Below are positions 17,924-42,910 of a DNA stretch of 64,000 nucleotides, piece by piece. Below the pieces are notes generated by a model. The model saw only the letters and a program-made list of their open reading frames with translations. It was not told the DNA's origin and made no database searches. The stretch comes from Anaerolineales bacterium (lineage in GTDB: Bacteria; Chloroflexota; Anaerolineae; Anaerolineales; UBA11579), in NCBI GenBank assembly GCA_035291465.1, contig DATDRZ010000001.1, positions 7,616 through 71,615 on the forward strand. Direction: 5' to 3'. A program made the position numbers and the translations under genes. Every line of letters starts with the position of its first letter. The first letter of the stretch is position 1.

Positions 17924-18035
17924 GGAGGAGGTCAAAATAACGGGCCTTAGGCCGGCTCGTTTGTTATACAAAGGTTGCAAGGAATAAGCCAGCCGAAAAC
18001 CATTAGAATAAGGAAGGCTCAGCGTTCCGCAGATT

Positions 18036-18107
18036 CACCACAAAGGCACAGAGGCCACTAAGATTTTTAGAATTAGGTTTCTTTGTATTCTCTGTGGCTT
18101 TGTGGTT
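18036..18107. repeat. imperfect inverted repeat in a divergent intergenic region
   Basis: CACCACAAAGGCACAGAG (18036-18053) versus the reverse complement of CTCTGTGGCTTTGTGGTT (18090-18107). 16 of 18 positions match. Confidence 0.45.
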
Positions 18108-18142: not shown

Positions 18143-19324
18143 ATGAAGCATTACACATACGTGATCGTCGGCGGCGGCATGGCCGCCGATTCCGCCATCA
18201 TAGGCATCCGTGAAGTCGACGAATCCGGCAGCATCGCGCTGATCGGCGCCGAAAACTTTCCTCCCTACGACCGGCCGCCGCTCACCAAAGCCCTGTGGAC
18301 CGGCAAGAAAACCCTCGACAAAGTCTGGCGCCAGACCGCCAGCCGCGGCGCCGACCTCTGCTTGAACCAGCGTGTGGTCTCCATCGATCCCGAGGCCAAG
18401 GTGGTGGGCGATGACCAGGGCGTGGAATACGAATACGACAAACTTCTTTTGGCAACCGGCGGCAGGCCGCGCGAACTGCCTTTCGGCGAAGGGCTGATCC
18501 GCTACTTCCGCACGATGGAAGATTACCAGGCGGTTCGCGAACAAGCCGCCGCAGGCGGCGCACGTTTCGCAGTCATCGGCGGCGGCTTCATCGGCTCCGA
18601 GTTGGCCGCTGCGTTGGCGATGCACAAGCAAAAAGTGCACATCATCTTTCCCGGTCCCGGCATCGGCGCCAATATTTTTCCCGCGGGATTGGTGGAGCAC
18701 ATCAACCAGTATTTCCGCGAGAAGGGCGTGGATGTGCTTAACGGCGAAGAGGTGGTTGATGTGCAAGCCGCCGGGAACGCGCGCCGCGTGGTGCTGAAGA
18801 GCGGCAAGACGCTGGAGGTGGATCACGTAGTGGCCGGCATCGGCATCCAGCCCAACGTCGAACTGGCCGGGATGGCCGGACTGCATATCGATAACGGCAT
18901 CTTGGTGGGCGAAGACCTGCAAACCAGCCACGCGGATATCTACGCCGCCGGCGACGTGGCGGCCTTTCCCAACCTGTACCTGGGCGGGCACCTGCGCTTC
19001 GAGCACGAGGACAATACCAACACCATGGGCAAAGCCGCCGGCCGCAGCATGGCGGGCAAACCCGAACCCTACGACTACGTTCCCTATTTCTATTCGGATC
19101 TCTTCGAGCTCGGTTACGAGGCGGTGGGCCGCCTGGATTCCCGCTACCAGATGGTGGAAGACTGGAAGGAGGGGGACCACAAGAAGGGCGTGGTTTATTA
19201 CCTGGACGACGGCCACCTGCGCGGCGTTTTGTTGTGGAATCTGTGGGACAAGGTCGACGCAGCGCGCGATCTGATTCGCGCAGTGGGACCGAAGGTTGCT
19301 AGCCAAATGCCGGGGAAGATTTAG
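18143..19324 (+). CDS. FAD-dependent pyridine nucleotide-disulfide oxidoreductase (ferredoxin reductase/AIF-like)
   Basis: AGGAGG RBS. YVIVGGGMAADSA (FAD GxGxxG), FAVIGGGFIGSELAAAL (NAD(P) GxGxxG), and IYAAGDVA. Confidence 0.85.
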   Translation: MKHYTYVIVGGGMAADSAIIGIREVDESGSIALIGAENFPPYDRPPLTKALWTGKKTLDKVWRQTASRGADLCLNQRVVSIDPEAKVVGDDQGVEYEYDKLLLATGGRPRELPFGEGLIRYFRTMEDYQAVREQAAAGGARFAVIGGGFIGSELAAALAMHKQKVHIIFPGPGIGANIFPAGLVEHINQYFREKGVDVLNGEEVVDVQAAGNARRVVLKSGKTLEVDHVVAGIGIQPNVELAGMAGLHIDNGILVGEDLQTSHADIYAAGDVAAFPNLYLGGHLRFEHEDNTNTMGKAAGRSMAGKPEPYDYVPYFYSDLFELGYEAVGRLDSRYQMVEDWKEGDHKKGVVYYLDDGHLRGVLLWNLWDKVDAARDLIRAVGPKVASQMPGKI

Positions 19325-19380
19325 ATTTTTGTAGTTTCCATCACTGACATTTTCTCAGCCTAAACATTTTCCGATAATTG

Positions 19381-19405
19381 GGCGCATTGCAATGCGCCCT
19401 TTTCG
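19381..19405 (+). terminator. rho-independent terminator
   Basis: Perfect palindrome GGCGCATTGCAATGCGCC followed by CTTTTCG, 57 nt after the oxidoreductase stop. Confidence 0.7.
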
Positions 19406-19600
19406 TCATTGCGAGGAGCACGCTCATGCGGAGTATGAGCAGCGGACGAAGCAATCTCGAATCAAGATCACATCGATCCCTGAAAGCCGTTTGCAAAATC
19501 ATTTACGCCGCTCTGCACCCTGCAAGCCAGTGACTCTTCGAGACTGCCACGTTGGCTTTGGCCGCTGCAGCGGCTCCAAAACGCCTCCTCGCGATGACGA
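19403..19600. repeat. MITE-like inverted-repeat element, copy A
   Basis: Termini are TCGTCATTGCGAGGAG (19403-19418) and CTCCTCGCGATGACGA (19585-19600), matching at 15 of 16 as an inverted repeat. The internal 22-mer GCGGACGAAGCAATCTCGAATC (19442-19463) recurs in copy B with one mismatch. Confidence 0.55.
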
Positions 19601-19648
19601 AAACGAACACACCCCCTTGTGCGCTATTACGGTGTTTGCGTCGAGGCG

Positions 19649-19654
19649 TATAAT
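19649..19654 (+). promoter_or_regulatory. candidate -10 box (TATAAT) for the ftcD leader
   Basis: A perfect TATAAT lies 16 nt upstream of the ATG at 19670. The -35 is weak (TTACGG-like, about 16-17 nt upstream). Confidence 0.35.
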
Positions 19655-19669
19655 CACCGCGGTTTCCGT

Positions 19670-19777
19670 ATGACCCAGCAAATCGTTGAGTGCATCCCAA
19701 ATCAAGGAAAGCTATGCTTTCCGCAGTTGCGAGTGAGCCTTTTAGGCGAGCGTGGCAATCCCCTGGATAGATCATGA
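19670..19777 (+). CDS. 35-codon upstream ORF duplicating the first 11 codons of ftcD
   Basis: Encodes MTQQIVECIPNQGKLCFPQLRVSLLGERGNPLDRS. Its TGA (19775-19777) overlaps the ftcD ATG (19774-19776) as ATGA. Expression is untested. Confidence 0.35.
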   Translation: MTQQIVECIPNQGKLCFPQLRVSLLGERGNPLDRS

Positions 19778-21333
19778 CTCAACAAATAGTTGAATGCATC
19801 CCTAATTTCTCCGAGGGTCGCCGCCCGGAAATACTCCAGGCCATCGTGTCTGCCATCCAATCTATTGACAGCGTGACCCTCCTCGACCAAAGTTCCGATG
19901 CGGATCACAACCGCTCGGTGATCACCTTCGTCGGTTCGCCTGAGTCTGTGGAAGCGGCAGCCTTTGCGGGAATCGCCAAAGCCGCCGAATTGATCGACAT
20001 GACCAAACATTCCGGCGAGCATCCGCGCATGGGGGCGACGGATGTGGTTCCTTTCGTTCCCATCTCCGGCGTTGACATGCAGGACTGCGTGAATATTGCC
20101 CACCGCCTGGGAAAGCGCGTGAGCGAGGAACTGGGCATTCCGGTGTACTTGTACGAAGAAGCTGCCACGCGTGAAGAGCGCCGCAATCTCGAAAACGTAC
20201 GCCGTGGCGAATACGAGGGTATTCGAGATTCGATCGCTACCGATCCAGCACGGCAACCCGACTTCGGACCCGCCAAACTTGGCAAGGCCGGCGCCGTGGC
20301 CATCGGGGCGCGCCAGCCTCTGATCGCCTACAACGTCTACCTGAATACCGGCGACGTAAAGATCGCCAAAGCCATTGCCAAAAAAGTGCGCACTTCTTCC
20401 GGCGGGCTGCCCTTTGTGAAGGGCGCGGGTTTCCTGGTGGATGGCAAAGCACAGGTATCCATGAACCTGACCAATTTCCGCGGCACCCCGGTAGCCCAGG
20501 TTGTCGATTTGATCCGGCAGGAAGCCGAGCAGCTGGGGACCTCGATTGAAAAAAGTGAACTCATTGGTTTGATACCTCAAGAAGCATTGGAAGATGCCGC
20601 GGTTTGGTATCTGCAGCTCAAAGATTTCAAGCGCGAGCAAGTGCTGGAACGCCGCATGCAGAGCGCTCAAAAGGAAGGTTCCCCGGAGCGTGGGAACCAG
20701 GGTGAGGGGGAGAGTGGTGATTTCCTGGAAGCGCTGGCATCTGCGAAGCCGACGCCGGGCGGAGGCTCCGCCGCGGGGCATGCCGGGGCGCTGGCCGCCG
20801 CGCTGGTGGCCATGGTGGCGCGCCTGACGTTGGGCAAGAAAAAATATGCGAACGTCGAAGCGCTGATGGACGAGTTGGTCAGCAAGGCAGACGCGTTGCG
20901 AGCTGATTTCGTCGAAGCGGTCCAAACGGACGCGGCCGCTTTCGATGCGGTGATGGCTGCCATGAAGCTGCCCAAAGAAACTGAAGAGCAAAAATCTGCC
21001 CGCGCCAACGCTATTGAGACCGCAACGCTGGAAGCAGCCCGCCAGCCGCTGGTGGTGTCGCGCATGGCAGTCGATTGTCTGGGCCTGGCGCGGGAAGCCG
21101 CGCGTCTTGGCAACGTCAACGCCATCAGCGACGCGGGTTCCGCCGCCGCCCTGGCACGGGCCTGCCTGGCTGGGTCGGGGCTGAACGTGCGCATCAACGT
21201 GCATTCGCTGCAAGACAAGGAGGAGGGGGAAGATCTGCTCAAGGAGCTACGCCGCCTGGAGAAGCAAGCCGATGAACTGGAATCCGAGATCCGCATGCAG
21301 GTGCAGGCGCGAGGGCGTTTCGAGCTCGAATGA
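19774..21333 (+). CDS. ftcD: bifunctional glutamate formimidoyltransferase / formimidoyltetrahydrofolate cyclodeaminase
   Basis: The N-terminal ECIPNFSEGRRPEI formiminotransferase domain covers ~300 aa. The C-terminal LASAKPTPGGGSAAGHAGALAAALVAMVARLT is a cyclodeaminase domain. Confidence 0.9.
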   Translation: MTQQIVECIPNFSEGRRPEILQAIVSAIQSIDSVTLLDQSSDADHNRSVITFVGSPESVEAAAFAGIAKAAELIDMTKHSGEHPRMGATDVVPFVPISGVDMQDCVNIAHRLGKRVSEELGIPVYLYEEAATREERRNLENVRRGEYEGIRDSIATDPARQPDFGPAKLGKAGAVAIGARQPLIAYNVYLNTGDVKIAKAIAKKVRTSSGGLPFVKGAGFLVDGKAQVSMNLTNFRGTPVAQVVDLIRQEAEQLGTSIEKSELIGLIPQEALEDAAVWYLQLKDFKREQVLERRMQSAQKEGSPERGNQGEGESGDFLEALASAKPTPGGGSAAGHAGALAAALVAMVARLTLGKKKYANVEALMDELVSKADALRADFVEAVQTDAAAFDAVMAAMKLPKETEEQKSARANAIETATLEAARQPLVVSRMAVDCLGLAREAARLGNVNAISDAGSAAALARACLAGSGLNVRINVHSLQDKEEGEDLLKELRRLEKQADELESEIRMQVQARGRFELE

Positions 21334-21345
21334 AGCCCGTTCCAC

Positions 21346-21572
21346 TCGTCATTGCGAGGAGGGCGAGGCGTAGCCATCCGCCCAGAGCCTGCCCCGAGCG
21401 AGCTGCTTTGCGGCGACGAGGGAAAGCAAGTCTCGAAGCGATTCGATTGCTCACAAATAATGCTTGTCGTAATGATTCATTACGACGAGGGAAATCGGGA
21501 ACCTGCGGACCTGATTCGAGGTTGCTTCGTCCGCTTACGCCGCTGCGCGTCGCAATGCTCCTCGCAATGACG
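21346..21572. repeat. MITE-like inverted-repeat element, copy B
   Basis: The left terminus TCGTCATTGCGAGGAG (21346-21361) is identical to copy A. The right terminus is CTCCTCGCAATGACG (21558-21572). The internal GATTCGAGGTTGCTTCGTCCGC (21513-21534) is the reverse complement of the copy A 22-mer with one mismatch. Confidence 0.55.
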
Positions 21573-21626
21573 GATATATAAGGGGCGTTGCTCCTAGCAT
21601 ATTAAGTGTGTGATCATAAAAACAGA

Positions 21627-23303
21627 ATGAAACCCTTTTGCTTCTTCCCGTTGATTTGCATCGCCGCGCTTCTGGCAAGCTGCAACCTGCCGGCCGGCGC
21701 CGCGGTCGCTAACACCGCATCCTCGGCAAGCGCCACTCCCTACCAGCCCACCATCGGCTCACAGAATACTGTTGGGTTGGAAGGCGAAAATGGCGAAATC
21801 GCAAGCTGGTGGCTGTCGCCGGACCTGCCGCTAGGGTTCCGCGATTCGCTGGCGCTGCCCGCCGGCGCCAACCTCGTGGAAGACCAGTCGCAGGCCCATC
21901 TGCGGTTGGCTGTGAATGAAGGTGAGATAGTCAGCCACTGGATCTATGCGGTGGTGGCGCCTTTCCCGACCATCGTTGATGAAGTGAGCTTCGAAGATGT
22001 TCAAGGCGCCTGGAACGGCGACAGTTCCGCCCCCTTCGCCGATCTGCCGCTGATGATGAGCCCTGAAACCAAGGCGGCCTTCACCGCCTGGTGGGGCGAA
22101 CCGGCAGCGGGTGCCGTGCGCGTCGAACCAGCGGACGAATTACTCAACGCCGCCTGGGCGGCCAAACCGGCCTGGGTGCTGGTTCCCTTCGAGGACTTGG
22201 CGCCGAAATGGAAGGTGCTCGCCGTCGATGGCCAATCCCCTATTAGGAAAGATTTCGACGCAGAGGATTATCCGCTTTCGGTGCCGATCGGCTTGAGCGG
22301 TGACGAGATCCTGGTTGCAGAAGCCCTTCCTCGATTTAGCTCAGAGAACAAAGCGCCGATTGCACCCGCGAGCAACCGCGATGCGGACAAACTGACCACT
22401 GTCATATTAACCGGGGTGACCGCCCTGGTGCGTTCCACCGCGTGGGAGATGAACCGCAAGGGGATCACCTATCCCGCGGAGGACATTGGGGACTTGCTGC
22501 GCGAAGCCGATATCACCCACATCAGCAATGAAGTTCCGTTTGCCGAGGACTGCCCGCCACCGAATCCCGTGCAGCGAGACCTGATTTTCTGCACAGACCC
22601 GGCGCACATCGAGCTGCTGGACGCTGTGGGCACAGATGTCGTCGAGCTCACCGGCGACCATTTCAACGATTGGGGGGCCGACGCCATGCTCTATACGCTG
22701 GAACTCTACAAGGAGCGCGGTTGGCCATATTATGGCGGCGGCGCCAATGCGGAGGAAGCGCGCCAGCCGCTCAAGCTGGAGGATCACGGCAACCTGATCG
22801 CATTCCTCGGCTGCAACGCGAAGGGAGGATCTTATGCGTCGGCAAAGGAAGATTATCCCGGCACAGTTCCCTGCGATTACGACTTGATGGAGCAGCAAGT
22901 GAGAGATCTGGCTGCCGAAGGTTATATCGTGATAGCCACTTTCCAACATAGCGAATACTTAACCTTCGTCCCGCAGCCCGACCTGGTGCGCGATTTCGGA
23001 CGCATCTCGGCGGCGGGCGCCAGCATCGTAAGCGGCAGCCAGGCGCACCAATCGCACGGGGTCGAGTTTCCCCGTCCGGACGCCATCATCACTTATGGGC
23101 TGGGCAACCTCTTCTTCGACCAGCGTGGAGTGGTTGAATTTGGCGACCGCGCCCTCATCGCCCGCCATGTGATTTATGATGGGCGCTACATCAGCACCGA
23201 ATTGTTTACGATTCAATTCGTCGATTATGCGAAGCCCAGATTTATGACCCCGGAGGAACGCGCCGAATACCTGCCGCTCATTTTCAACGCCAGCCGCTGG
23301 TGA
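21627..23303 (+). CDS. CapA/PGA_cap-family metallophosphoesterase-like lipoprotein
   Basis: MKPFCFFPLICIAALLASC lipobox from ATG 21627. The C-terminal half (TGDHFNDWGADAM...GGGANAEEARQP...FLGCN...SGSQAHQSHG) resembles CapA-type proteins. Confidence 0.75.
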   Translation: MKPFCFFPLICIAALLASCNLPAGAAVANTASSASATPYQPTIGSQNTVGLEGENGEIASWWLSPDLPLGFRDSLALPAGANLVEDQSQAHLRLAVNEGEIVSHWIYAVVAPFPTIVDEVSFEDVQGAWNGDSSAPFADLPLMMSPETKAAFTAWWGEPAAGAVRVEPADELLNAAWAAKPAWVLVPFEDLAPKWKVLAVDGQSPIRKDFDAEDYPLSVPIGLSGDEILVAEALPRFSSENKAPIAPASNRDADKLTTVILTGVTALVRSTAWEMNRKGITYPAEDIGDLLREADITHISNEVPFAEDCPPPNPVQRDLIFCTDPAHIELLDAVGTDVVELTGDHFNDWGADAMLYTLELYKERGWPYYGGGANAEEARQPLKLEDHGNLIAFLGCNAKGGSYASAKEDYPGTVPCDYDLMEQQVRDLAAEGYIVIATFQHSEYLTFVPQPDLVRDFGRISAAGASIVSGSQAHQSHGVEFPRPDAIITYGLGNLFFDQRGVVEFGDRALIARHVIYDGRYISTELFTIQFVDYAKPRFMTPEERAEYLPLIFNASRW

Positions 23304-40285: not shown

Positions 40286-42778
40286 ATGCCAGGTGGTTCT
40301 TCAATCCAGCCAGTAGATATTGGTGAGCAGATGCGCTCGGCGTACCTCGATTACGCCATGAGCGTGATCGTTGCTCGCGCCCTGCCTGATGCTCGAGATG
40401 GGCTGAAACCAGTTCATCGCCGCATCCTTTACGCCATGCTTGATATGGGAATTCGCTCCAGCTCCACCTACAAAAAATCTGCGCGTATTGTCGGTGAAGT
40501 GTTGGGCAAATATCACCCGCATAGCGATGTGGCCGTGTACGATGCCACGGCGCGCATGGCGCAAGACTTCTCCATGCGCTATCCGCTCATCGACGGCCAG
40601 GGAAACTTTGGTTCCATTGGCGGCGATCCACCCGCGGCCATGCGCTATACGGAGGCGCGGTTACACGCCATGGCCGAGGAATTGCTGGCGGATATCGATA
40701 AGGATACTGTCGATTTCGGGGACAACTTTGATGCTTCGTTAAAGGAGCCGCTGGTGCTCCCCAGCCGGGTGCCAAACCTATTGCTGAACGGATCATCGGG
40801 TATCGCCGTCGGGATGGCGACCAACATTCCTCCGCACAACCTTGGGGAACTGGTGGGTGCACTGCGTTACATGATCGATCGCTGGGAAAAGTCCGACAAT
40901 ATCACCACTGAGAATTTGCTCAAATTCGTAAAAGGTCCAGATTTTCCAACCGGTGGCATCATCGCCGGCCTGGACGGCATTCGCGACCTGTACAGCAAGG
41001 GCAAAGGCCAGTTGCTGGTGCGCGCCAAATCGCGCATCGAAGAAGGCCGCCGCGGGCGTATGCGCATTGTGATCAGTGAGATTCCATATCAACTGAACCT
41101 CACCAACCTCATCGAACGCATCGCTGACCTGGTGCGCGAGGGTCGCCTGGAAGGTATCGCAGACCTGCGCGATGAATCCGACCGCGATGGCCTGAGCATC
41201 GTGATCGAGTTGAAAGCGGGCGCCGAGCCCAAGCTAGTTTTAAACCGTTTATACAAATACACGCCACTGCAGAGCACGTTCGCTGCGCAAATGTTGGCTC
41301 TGGTAGATGGCGAACCGCGTCTTCTGTCTCTTAAGCGGGCGCTGCAGATCTTCGTTGAACATCGCCAGGTTGTCATCACACGGCGTTCCAAGTTCGAACT
41401 GGAAAAGGCCAAGGCCCGCGGCCATATCCTGGAAGGGTTGCTGAAAGCCCTCAAAAACCTTGATGAAGTCATCGAGACCATTCGTAAGTCGCCCGACGCG
41501 GAGGTTGCCAAGGAACGCTTGATGTCCAAATTCAAGCTGTCCGACAAGCAGTCGCAAGCCATCCTCGACATGCAGCTGCGCCGCCTGGCAGCCCTGGAGC
41601 GCAAGAAGATCGAAGACGAATACAAAGAAATTACAGAACGCATCGCTTATTTGGAAGATTTGCTGAAGCATCCCAAGAAGATCCTAGCTTTGATCAGAGA
41701 AGATCTGGGCGATTTGGAAAAAGCTTACGGCGACGAACGTAAAACCACCATTGATGCAGAGGGCAAGGGGAAGGACGACCTGACCGAAGAAAGCCTCATT
41801 GCCGACGAGGCCGTGCTGGTCAGCCTCACGCAGCAGGGGTATGTGAAGCGCGTGGCGGCTAAGACTTTCAAGGCGCAGACTCGCGGCGGTTCCGGCGTAA
41901 AGGGCCATGCCACCAAAGACAAAGATGAAGTGCTTATTCTGGTGCCTGCCCGTACGCTGGATACGATCTTGTTCTTCTCCGATCGCGGCAAAGTCTATTC
42001 CGAAAGGGTCTATCGCATCCCAGACGCCGACCGCACGGCGCGCGGTACGCCCATTATCAATATCCTCAACGTCAGTTCGGGCGAGACAATTACCGCCGCG
42101 GTTCCTGTTCCCGATTTCAAAGCGGCGGAATTCTGCATGATGGCCACTCGCAAAGGCAAGATCAAGCGTATGGCACTCAGTGAGTTCGAAGCCGTTCGCC
42201 CGTCCGGGTTGATTGCCATGGGCCTGGACAAAGGCGATGCACTATCTTGGGTTCACCTGGCTGGCAGCAGAGATCAGATCATCCTGGCTACACAACGCGG
42301 CAAAGCATTGCGCTTCGCTATTTCCGCGGTGCGTCCGATGGGGCGTCAGGCTGCCGGGGTGAGGGCAATCAGTATAAAAGCCAAGGACCAGGTGGCAGGC
42401 ATGGAAGTGGTTGAGTCCGGTGGGGACTTGCTTATTGTCACCACCAAGGGATATGGCAAGCGCACCCCTTTAAAGGAGTACCGTGCGAAGGGTCGTGGGA
42501 CCAGCGGCATGCTCACCATCGATGCGAAGGCGTTGCCAGCCGTTGGCACCATTGCTGCGGTACGTGTGGTTCAAGACGCCGATGAGGTCACCATTATCTC
42601 GTCGGCCGGCGTGGTGCTGCGCACGAAAGTCAAAGACATCAAGCGGGCTGGCCGCGCAACTCGCGGCGTTCGCTTGATGAACGTTGCGGGGGGCGATAGC
42701 GTGGCTACTGTGGCACGTATCGCTGCGGCCGATCTCAAACTTGCAGGAGCGCAGGAAAACGGCAAAGAGGCAAAGTAA
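40286..42778 (+). CDS. gyrA: DNA gyrase subunit A
   Basis: [42 protein letters not shown] (catalytic Tyr), and C-terminal beta-pinwheel repeats. Confidence 0.97.
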
Positions 42779-42910
42779 ACTCTGCTTACTACAGTTGCGA
42801 GAAGGAGCTTAAGGCTTAGAGCCTGTCCCGAGTGAGCCGCGGAGTTACCCCTGAGCGAATTGAATGGGCGGCAACGAGGGAACGCAAACGAACCCCTTTT
42901 GAAAGCAATA

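Follow-up and report, generated by a model that had tools for sequence, protein, structure and literature searches.

Rickettsia palindromic elements (RPEs) insert in frame into protein-coding genes. In bacterial operons, an overlapping stop and start (ATGA or TGATG) couples the translation of adjacent cistrons, while trpL and ermCL exemplify leader-peptide attenuators and regulatory upstream open reading frames (ORFs). Campbell-type integration of a circle carrying the 5' end of a gene yields insertion-duplication products, and insertion sequences with long, variable direct repeats are known, such as IS1634 (17-478 bp). Repetitive extragenic palindromic (REP) sequences with GTAG or CGTC tags have been surveyed together with REPINs and RAYT transposases, with Chloroflexi among the hosts; REPs were noted inside genes and at annotated N-termini, and the word 'duplication' occurs zero times in that survey (Di Nocera et al. 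2013, PMC3733652). The 64,000-nucleotide stretch of DNA from an Anaerolineales bacterium that we analyzed (contig DATDRZ010000001.1, hereafter the window) holds a locus that shares traits with all of these systems. It encodes the glutamate formimidoyltransferase/cyclodeaminase FtcD. We consider it probable that ftcD was split after codon 11 by the insertion of a 61-nt REP-like element with a second start behind it, and that the resulting upstream ORF serves as a translational bridge from which ribosomes would reinitiate at position 19774. The locus belongs to a recurrent class: its repeat family splits the 5' ends of about nine other Anaerolineales genes in a like manner.

The locus comprises the following features, with coordinates in the window.

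19649..19654, + strand: TATAAT, the putative ancestral -10 box of ftcD, 15 nt 5' of the first ATG and part of a block kept in the nearest orthologs
19670..19702, + strand: copy A (ATGACCCAGCAAATCGTTGAGTGCATCCCAAAT), the ancestral ftcD codons 1-11 (MTQQIVECIPN), which now open the upstream ORF
19670..19777, + strand: upstream ORF of 35 codons plus TGA, the TGA (19775-19777) overlapping the ftcD ATG at 19774 as ATGA
19703..19763, + strand: REP-like repeat element of 61 nt, recognized by covariance model R1, a blastn match in locus L088 and a pattern scan
19706-19722, + strand: hairpin 1 of the element
19723-19726, + strand: GCAG tag of the element
19727-19730 and 19755-19758, + strand: TTGC and GCAA, which pair and enclose hairpin 2 (GCC 19737-19739, GGC 19745-19747)
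right end of the window element, + strand: GCAATCCCC
19764..19773, + strand: 10-nt spacer between the element and the restored start, TGGATAGATC
19774..19806, + strand: copy A' (ATGACTCAACAAATAGTTGAATGCATCCCTAAT), the functional ftcD codons 1-11, differing from copy A at 5 synonymous sites
19774..21333, + strand: ftcD, 519 aa, with the Pfam domains FTCD_N, FTCD and FTCD_C

An earlier note on this DNA had described two copies of a start that both encode MTQQIVECIPN and differ by five synonymous third-position changes, a 35-codon upstream frame whose TGA overlaps the ftcD ATG, and a TATAAT at 19649-19654 before the first ATG. The coordinates and sequences are correct, and the upstream ATG stands in a genuine promoter and start context that is kept in orthologs. 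The two copies match at 28 of 33 bases, which is far beyond chance. Their differences, at offsets 6, 9, 15, 21 and 30 (C>T, G>A, C>A, G>A and A>T with copy A as the reference), all fall at third codon positions and are all synonymous (P = (1/3)^5 = 0.004 for position alone). The surroundings of the copies show no similarity, neither 5' of the two ATGs nor 3' of codon 11, where copy A' runs on into FSEGR..., the start of Pfam FTCD_N. A tandem duplication of a 104-nt unit was ruled out, as the 60 nt 5' of the two ATGs are unrelated. FtcD is complete, with all three domains present (E-values of 8e-73 for FTCD_N, 3e-22 for FTCD and 6e-59 for FTCD_C). The upstream ORF translates as MTQQIVECIPNQGKLCFPQLRVSLLGERGNPLDRS followed by the stop, and its frame through the element is the one also used by the corresponding ORFs of loci L105 and L111 (QGKLCFPQLR...).

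We examined four of the nearest FtcD homologs (P0002, P0004, P0009 and P0010, at loci L086-L089), which have 81-83% amino-acid identity. All four loci have an intact ftcD ATG 12-15 nt 3' of cgTATAATcaccgcgg, which is also found in front of copy A in the window, and the block gtcgaggcgTATAATcaccgcg is conserved in them 12-15 nt before the ftcD ATG. Neither the duplicate nor the 71-nt insert of element and spacer is present at ftcD in these four loci, and about 50 more distant orthologs have no second start within the 30 nt displayed upstream of the ATG. Moreover, the peptide of copy A is identical to the N-terminal consensus among the nearest homologs P0002, P0005, P0008 and P0010-P0012. Because the orthologs show an intact ftcD directly behind the same promoter and without a duplicate, copy A is, as judged from these alignments, the ancestral start and not a secondary relic. 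The ancestral start thus lies 5' of the insertion, and 104 nt were added after codon 11 (61 of element, 10 of spacer and 33 of copy A'). The absence of duplicate and insert from L086-L089 refutes a conserved leader peptide. The earlier note had also proposed a leader peptide regulating ftcD, against which this absence speaks, and a duplication created beside a larger repeat at 19400-19603, which was right in spirit but named the wrong repeat, the relevant one being the 71-nt insert. Polarizing the five differences between the copies by means of orthologs failed, since synonymous sites are saturated and the ftcD relatives too distant.

The same comparison bears on how ftcD is normally read. Loci L001, L003-L005 and L010 carry GGTATAAT at the place of the -10 box and have no Shine-Dalgarno sequence. 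Throughout the close FtcD orthologs (L001-L013 and L086-L089), (G)GTATAAT or GGTAGTATGAT is found 12-22 nt before the ATG, again without a Shine-Dalgarno sequence; more distant FtcD orthologs do carry GGAGG-type sites. Judging from this pattern, mRNAs with a short leader or none seem to be common in this clade. At L088:1747-3549, the deposited 600-aa FtcD (P0009) is over-extended: it reads through the promoter and a reverse-oriented element, and its real start is the Met of MTNKIVEC. A foreign origin of the whole ftcD gene found no support, as the identity of FtcD to its counterpart in the syntenic locus L087 (83%) is in line with that of its neighbors Pyr_redox (87%) and PGA_cap (78%).

That the insert contains a repeat became apparent from blastn, in which its first 31 nt matched a sequence about 85 nt 5' of ftcD in L088, in reverse orientation. 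Scanning metagenomes for the pattern GGAAAGC-N2-3-GCTTTCC-GYAG-TTGCGAG returned 34 loci, nearly all from one Joint Genome Institute (JGI) sample series and one of them from the window's own organism. About 30 distinct copies are present in related Anaerolineales (one metagenome series and related metagenome-assembled genomes). The element measures 56-94 nt and is built, in this order, of (Y)CAA, hairpin 1, the tag, TTGCGAGGA, hairpin 2 and GACGAAGCAATCCCC(AA). Hairpin 1 (GGAAAGC-nnn-GCTTTCC) is invariant across copies, and the stem of hairpin 2 varies in sequence in most copies yet always pairs, which amounts to covariation. The tag, directly 5' of the TTGC...GCAA palindrome, is GCAG in all copies except that of L088, where it is GTAG, with the search pattern allowing GYAG only. 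The family consensus has zero stop codons in all six frames. Covariance model R1 was built from 22 copies, and the window copy, itself part of the model alignment, scores 66 bits against it (E = 7e-18); its hairpin 2 and its right-hand conserved motif are degenerate. A search of the 64 kb with R1 yielded no second full copy (weak relatives only), exact and 3-mismatch searches for the insert yielded none either, and comparing 19200-21800 with Rfam (E up to 5) returned no family, with two hits at chance level. The weak relatives include a remnant of hairpin 1 and GCAG between the M23 peptidase and Pyr_redox genes (18008-18041, 21 bits) and a related but distinct multi-hairpin repeat at the 3' end of a gene (42770-42890, 24 bits).

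Most copies of the element are intergenic. In about a third, the gene start is duplicated and the element falls within the first 3-35 codons; a single copy is carried in frame by a gene. The family resembles REPs in that it is a short palindromic stem-loop repeat, here with two stem-loops, that has beside the palindrome a tetranucleotide which may correspond to the REP tag (GCAG, or GTAG in L088) and occurs in many, mainly extragenic copies, some of them within ORFs or at N-termini. It differs from REPs in its two hairpins, its asymmetric ends and a tag that reads GCAG everywhere except in one copy. A tblastn search of the window and about 140 loci with an approximate IS200 TnpA query found no RAYT or other cognate transposase for it. 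The REP survey, furthermore, is silent on a duplication of flanking gene starts or a coupling to upstream ORFs. The ends of the element (CAAGGAAAGC on the left, GCAATCCCC(AA) on the right) and the absence of a fixed short target duplication set it apart from miniature inverted-repeat transposable elements (MITEs). Copies at L098, L118 and L120 form one subfamily flanked by additional palindromic arms, with AACCTTGCGAAGGT as the left arm and its reverse complement as the right one, and owing to these arms this subfamily does have terminal inverted repeats, of which the 61-nt type has none. The likeness to RPEs lies in a consensus that is free of stops in any frame and in one copy that is translated in frame in a PriA-like helicase gene. 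That copy, at L118:3501-3598 on the minus strand, adds 33 residues (SRKASLSAVARARPERAARSDEGKPKADEAIPF) to the ORF, with 482 codons before and 368 after it. Unlike an RPE, the element at ftcD and about nine other genes lies outside the protein, in an upstream ORF, and the gene start is duplicated.

Aligning the left flank to the right flank for every distinct copy of the element showed that the start region is repeated on both sides at L090, L091, L097, L101 (twice), L105, L110, L111, L117 and L136, corresponding to about nine genes other than ftcD. The genes and the lengths of the repeats are as follows.

L090: repeat of 71 nt that includes the 5' untranslated region
L091: hypC-like gene (MCLGVPGK), repeat of 36 nt
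L097: atpD, repeat of 23 nt
L101 and L136: PPDK_N-family gene in two species, repeat of 106 nt
L105: sbcD-like gene, repeat of 45 nt or more
L111: sulfotransferase gene, repeat of 55 nt
L101b and L110b: mutS2-like gene in two species, repeat of 12-14 nt
L117: repeat consisting of the Shine-Dalgarno sequence and the ATG

At these loci the left copy stops 2-5 nt before GGAAAGC and the right copy opens at the ATG or the Shine-Dalgarno sequence; wherever a coding start is affected, the element has sense orientation. The spacer from element to start varies in sequence and in length, from 10 to 69 nt. The same pattern occurs at non-coding ends of genes at L106 and L092; at L106 both copies retain the terminator stem and differ in the loop. 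Intergenic copies of the element, consensus-like ones included, have no long flanking repeats. The duplicated start is, on this sequence comparison, a property of the element class and not of the ftcD locus alone.

Three genes (PPDK-like, mutS2-like and sulfotransferase) each have the element at one shared site in two species, so the split-start layout persists over evolutionary time. For the sulfotransferase gene, the second species (L141) has the element and a homologous spacer 5' of the gene, and its contig begins in the element, which leaves the left flank out of view. At L110, two copies in the same orientation (447-517 and 679-749) stand 230 nt apart, and the second splits the mutS2-like start at the same site as the copy at L101:7978-8039. 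Within the genomes of L101 and L136, the two copies of the PPDK-like start are more alike than corresponding copies are between genomes. Their relatives L135 and L137 lack the element. A test for phylogenetic discordance around this insertion had no power, the four species being about equidistant.

The earlier note had argued from the purely synonymous divergence at ftcD that the upstream copy is, or recently was, translated, and this argument generalizes. At eight loci, representing seven genes, the codons that differ between the two copies comprise 38 synonymous and 10 nonsynonymous differences, where a random single-base null gives 24.6% synonymous (P = 3e-15). The nucleotide differences number 11, 4 and 44 at codon positions 1, 2 and 3. 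The nonsynonymous ones are located in short N-terminal segments at L090, L097, L101, L105 and L136, and the synonymous ones include multi-base switches (TCT/AGC, AGG/CGA, TTA/CTT and CTG/TTA). With dN/dS at roughly 0.1, the differences look already filtered by selection, which argues that the upstream copy was not an idle relic while they arose. Drift of an idle copy, or gene conversion between an idle and a functional copy, would leave mostly nonsynonymous differences; neither therefore fits the ratio of 38:10.

The end of the upstream ORF stop lies at the following distances from the downstream ATG.

+4 (ATGA): window, L090, L101, L111 and L136
+1 (TGATG): L110b
0 (TAAATG): L097
-4: L105
+8: L117
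+20: L101b
-52: L091 only, where the downstream start has its own Shine-Dalgarno sequence, GTGAGG

In 6 of 9 independent genes the stop is thus within 4 nt of the downstream start, against 1.6 expected when the spacer is shuffled and the frame randomized (P = 5e-4). In the window, the ATGA at 19774-19777 is preceded by cccctggatagatc, and the downstream start has no strong Shine-Dalgarno sequence. The 10-nt spacer (cccctggatagatcATG) contains no clear Shine-Dalgarno sequence, no -10 box and no promoter-like hexamers by inspection and promoter scan. An ATGA or close stop, combined with little or no Shine-Dalgarno signal for the start that follows, is what is seen in translationally coupled operons; the difference is that the upstream cistron is here no gene at all, but a mobile element joined to the opening codons severed from the downstream gene itself.

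On these observations, the most likely model of expression is the following. Transcription from the ancestral TATAAT promoter would yield a short-leader mRNA without a Shine-Dalgarno sequence, on which ribosomes would initiate at the ancestral ATG at 19670; initiation of this kind is suggested by the missing Shine-Dalgarno sequences and the 12-22 nt between TATAAT and ATG in the orthologs. The ribosomes would then translate through the element, unwinding its hairpins, until they reach the TGA that shares bases with the second ATG, where they would terminate. Reinitiation at 19774 would give normal FtcD; it is suggested by the ATGA overlap, by a spacer with neither Shine-Dalgarno sequence nor promoter and by the known behavior of overlapping stops and starts. 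Left to itself, the ftcD start, moved 113 nt from the 5' end and behind two hairpins, would probably be poorly used, since these genes are normally read from short-leader mRNAs. The 35-codon ORF would accordingly act as a bridge that keeps the split gene expressed and not as a sensor or regulatory leader. A role for the upstream peptide as such is improbable, given that three reading frames of the element are used, depending on the gene. Of the earlier proposal of a translationally coupled leader that regulates ftcD, the coupling is supported by the ATGA and by the 6 of 9 genes with a stop at most 4 nt away, and the regulatory leader is contradicted by its absence from L086-L089.

Several points weigh against this account. 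Both the transcription start and the coupling are read from sequence. A strict two-hexamer scan found no canonical -35/-10 pair at the conserved TATAAT or inside the insert, and the element or the spacer may contain a non-canonical promoter. At L091 the downstream start, with its own Shine-Dalgarno sequence, needs no coupling. In the window taken alone, a stop within 4 nt of the ATG is expected in 41% of cases under the null; the overlap is unsurprising because the element is stop-free in the frame read and ftcD begins with ATGA, and support for stop-start coupling hence comes from the class and not from this single case. As to the origin of the second copy, a long target duplication is not general, as intergenic copies are without long flanking repeats, and the combination of an identical block beside the element with species-level divergence further 5', described below, is predicted by no single simple model. 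Finally, no cognate transposase turned up in the search mentioned above.

The alternative that fares best on the side of expression is that the insertion is an inert scar, with a new promoter in the element or spacer driving ftcD, or with translation initiated directly at 19774, and the upstream ORF playing no part. Spacers elsewhere do carry a Shine-Dalgarno sequence or a -10-like motif (GTGAGG at L091, AAGGAG at L097, TATAGA at L111 and TAACACT at L101b), and the overlap in the window is unremarkable by itself. The spacer of the window, however, is merely 10 nt long and has neither a Shine-Dalgarno sequence nor a -10 box. In addition, an inert copy should gather nonsynonymous changes, whereas copy A keeps the exact consensus peptide and the count across loci is 38:10, and upstream stops near downstream starts are commoner than chance. 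We therefore regard an inert scar as unlikely.

Far less probable still is a regulatory leader peptide or attenuator, in which the upstream ORF would have evolved to sense a metabolite or a charged tRNA and would control ftcD in the manner of trpL. What invites this idea is a short ORF 5' of the gene on a short 5' untranslated region, overlapping the gene start and containing hairpins. The ORF, however, is missing in the four nearest orthologs, and some 50 others have no second start in the 30 nt displayed. Its middle part is a mobile repeat read in three frames across genes, so there is no conserved peptide, nor are there conserved regulatory codons. The leader has no terminator/antiterminator pair, no terminator-like T-run on the sense strand and no Rfam match, and its fold is unexceptional (z = -1.1). 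Translational bypass and an RNA-level intron were set aside, as one copy would then escape coding constraint and hopping does not need a full duplicate.

We now turn to the origin of the second start. The copies differ in the way two functional alleles do, and with modest confidence we suggest that the differences more likely arose by recombination between diverged alleles, at or after insertion, than by the main alternative, a long target duplication made in place. Any model of the origin has to accommodate two further findings. Similarity between the copies stops at the ATG or the Shine-Dalgarno sequence, or enters the spacer only weakly, as it does between orthologs. Next to near-consensus elements (78-89 bits), 16-76 identical nt abut the element, as seen at L090, L101, L105, L111 and L136, and then switch sharply on the 5' side to 15-33% divergence; this identical block is absent where the element is degenerate or variant (window, 66 bits; L097, 73 bits; L091, 47 bits).

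One possible, and tentative, origin is a diverged allele with the element at a harmless place 5' of the gene: the second start, the spacer and the element would all have come from it and been joined to the resident gene by element-anchored or one-sided-homology recombination. The starts of two different functional alleles would then be combined at one locus. This could have proceeded by capture of the element, upstream region and start from a lineage with the element 5' of the gene, or by later replacement of the flank up to a point within the repeat. Such a donor would explain the allele-like divergence, with synonymous changes in conserved N-termini, conservative replacements in short segments and multi-base switches, as well as the fading of similarity upstream of the ATG or Shine-Dalgarno sequence. 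Copies of the element do sit just 5' of gene starts at L102, L116, L114 and L108, and in-frame intragenic copies exist (the PriA-like gene of L118). A donor allele does not predict the identical block beside the element, for which a nick-initiated conversion at the left end of the element, or a recent duplication, might account. Moreover, no donor-type ftcD allele was found, the imported piece would have to be tiny given that the body of ftcD and its neighbors are similarly identical to L087, and alleles with a divergence of 15-30% should recombine only rarely.

A transposition that makes an unusually long target-site duplication in place, with the gene surviving if its start codon is spanned and the copies drifting apart afterwards, would be the simplest route to the observed order of copy, element and copy. 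It finds a precedent in IS1634 and some support in the identical nucleotides that abut the element. The locus shares with IS1634 and with insertion-duplication products a truncated 5' copy, an insert and a complete copy with its own start, as well as duplications of tens of bases that vary in length. It differs from them in that the insert is just 61-130 nt long, the copies are non-identical and intergenic members, even consensus-like ones, have no long repeats. A fully identical duplication is found at no locus, the 5' parts beside the identical blocks being 15-33% diverged with sharp breakpoints, and drift of an idle copy predicts mostly nonsynonymous changes as opposed to the 38:10 observed. 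This route thus appears quite doubtful. A diversity-generating retroelement was ruled out, since the substitutions are not confined to adenines and other loci show all substitution types.

The arrangement at ftcD is present in 15 independent assemblies representing several strain variants, namely 13 MEGAHIT k141 contigs from the ENA and 2 JGI assemblies. In the region from -450 to +60, 14 of the 15 are base-for-base identical, and the fifteenth has one mismatch at -352. A metagenome assembly chimera, joining two strains or species via a common repeat, would neatly account for two allele-like copies around a repeat, and Logan contigs (k = 31) do break at the element, but we give it virtually no credence: the insert is 71 nt, so that a 141-mer spans promoter, copy A, insert and copy A', the 15 assemblies from two pipelines are concordant but for the one mismatch, and the L111 arrangement was likewise recovered in one JGI and one k141 ENA assembly. 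Logan k = 31 contigs and some MEGAHIT contigs begin exactly inside the element at L085 (at window position 19704), L139 and L141, from which it follows that the repeat fragments assemblies at these loci. The contig end at 19704 had been considered as a polymorphism, an idea that was dropped as it is a k = 31 break at the repeat, the same as in L139 and L141. Among the assemblies searched, no within-species allele without the element was found for ftcD or the sulfotransferase gene.

Two larger repeats bracket ftcD.

19400..19603, strand not assigned: REPIN/MITE-like element of about 205 nt (repeat copy A of the earlier note), with 19-nt terminal inverted repeats TTTTCGTCATTGCGAGGAG, CGTC-tagged
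21346..21572, strand not assigned: second copy of the same MITE-like family, 227 nt, in inverted orientation, just 3' of the ftcD stop

They are the sole two copies of their family in the 64 kb and have opposite orientations. Both have a TTGCGAGGAG core in common with the 61-nt element, and their CGTC tag may be a further trait shared with REPs. Being CGTC-tagged doublets with terminal inverted repeats, they belong to a family different from that of the 61-nt element, and the element at 19400-19603 is not the cause of the duplication.

Taken by its parts, the element behaves as a repeat of the REP/RPE type and its expression as ordinary stop-start coupling. In a limited literature search, in which the REP survey was the only relevant item, the combination of an insertion in the first codons, a respelled second start and an ORF through a stop-free element was not described. 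Three features go together in this class: a duplicated start, an element consensus that is open in six frames, and stop-start coupling. In practical terms, gene callers over-extend ORFs or pick wrong starts at such sites, as in the 600-aa FtcD call at L088.

The allele-like divergence at the eight measured loci fits no standard transposition model, and recombination anchored on a portable repeat, or gene conversion begun at the end of the element, are candidate processes. It is conceivable, if speculative, that the family invades housekeeping genes within their first 3-35 codons and leaves them functional, each time with a start that stems from another functional allele, in a homology-guided 'homing' between lineages, with expression by read-through and reinitiation. 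The affected genes are ftcD, atpD, hypC and the sbcD-like, mutS2-like, PPDK-like and sulfotransferase genes. If true, this would represent an undescribed, gene-preserving form of mobile-element insertion, together with a fine-scale exchange of gene 5' ends between lineages. For ftcD, the apparent leader peptide would be the scar of a mobile-element insertion, which alters the reading of ftcD regulation and of its annotated start. More generally, the class would offer a recurrent way for bacterial genes with short leaders to tolerate a structured repeat in the 5' end of their coding sequence.

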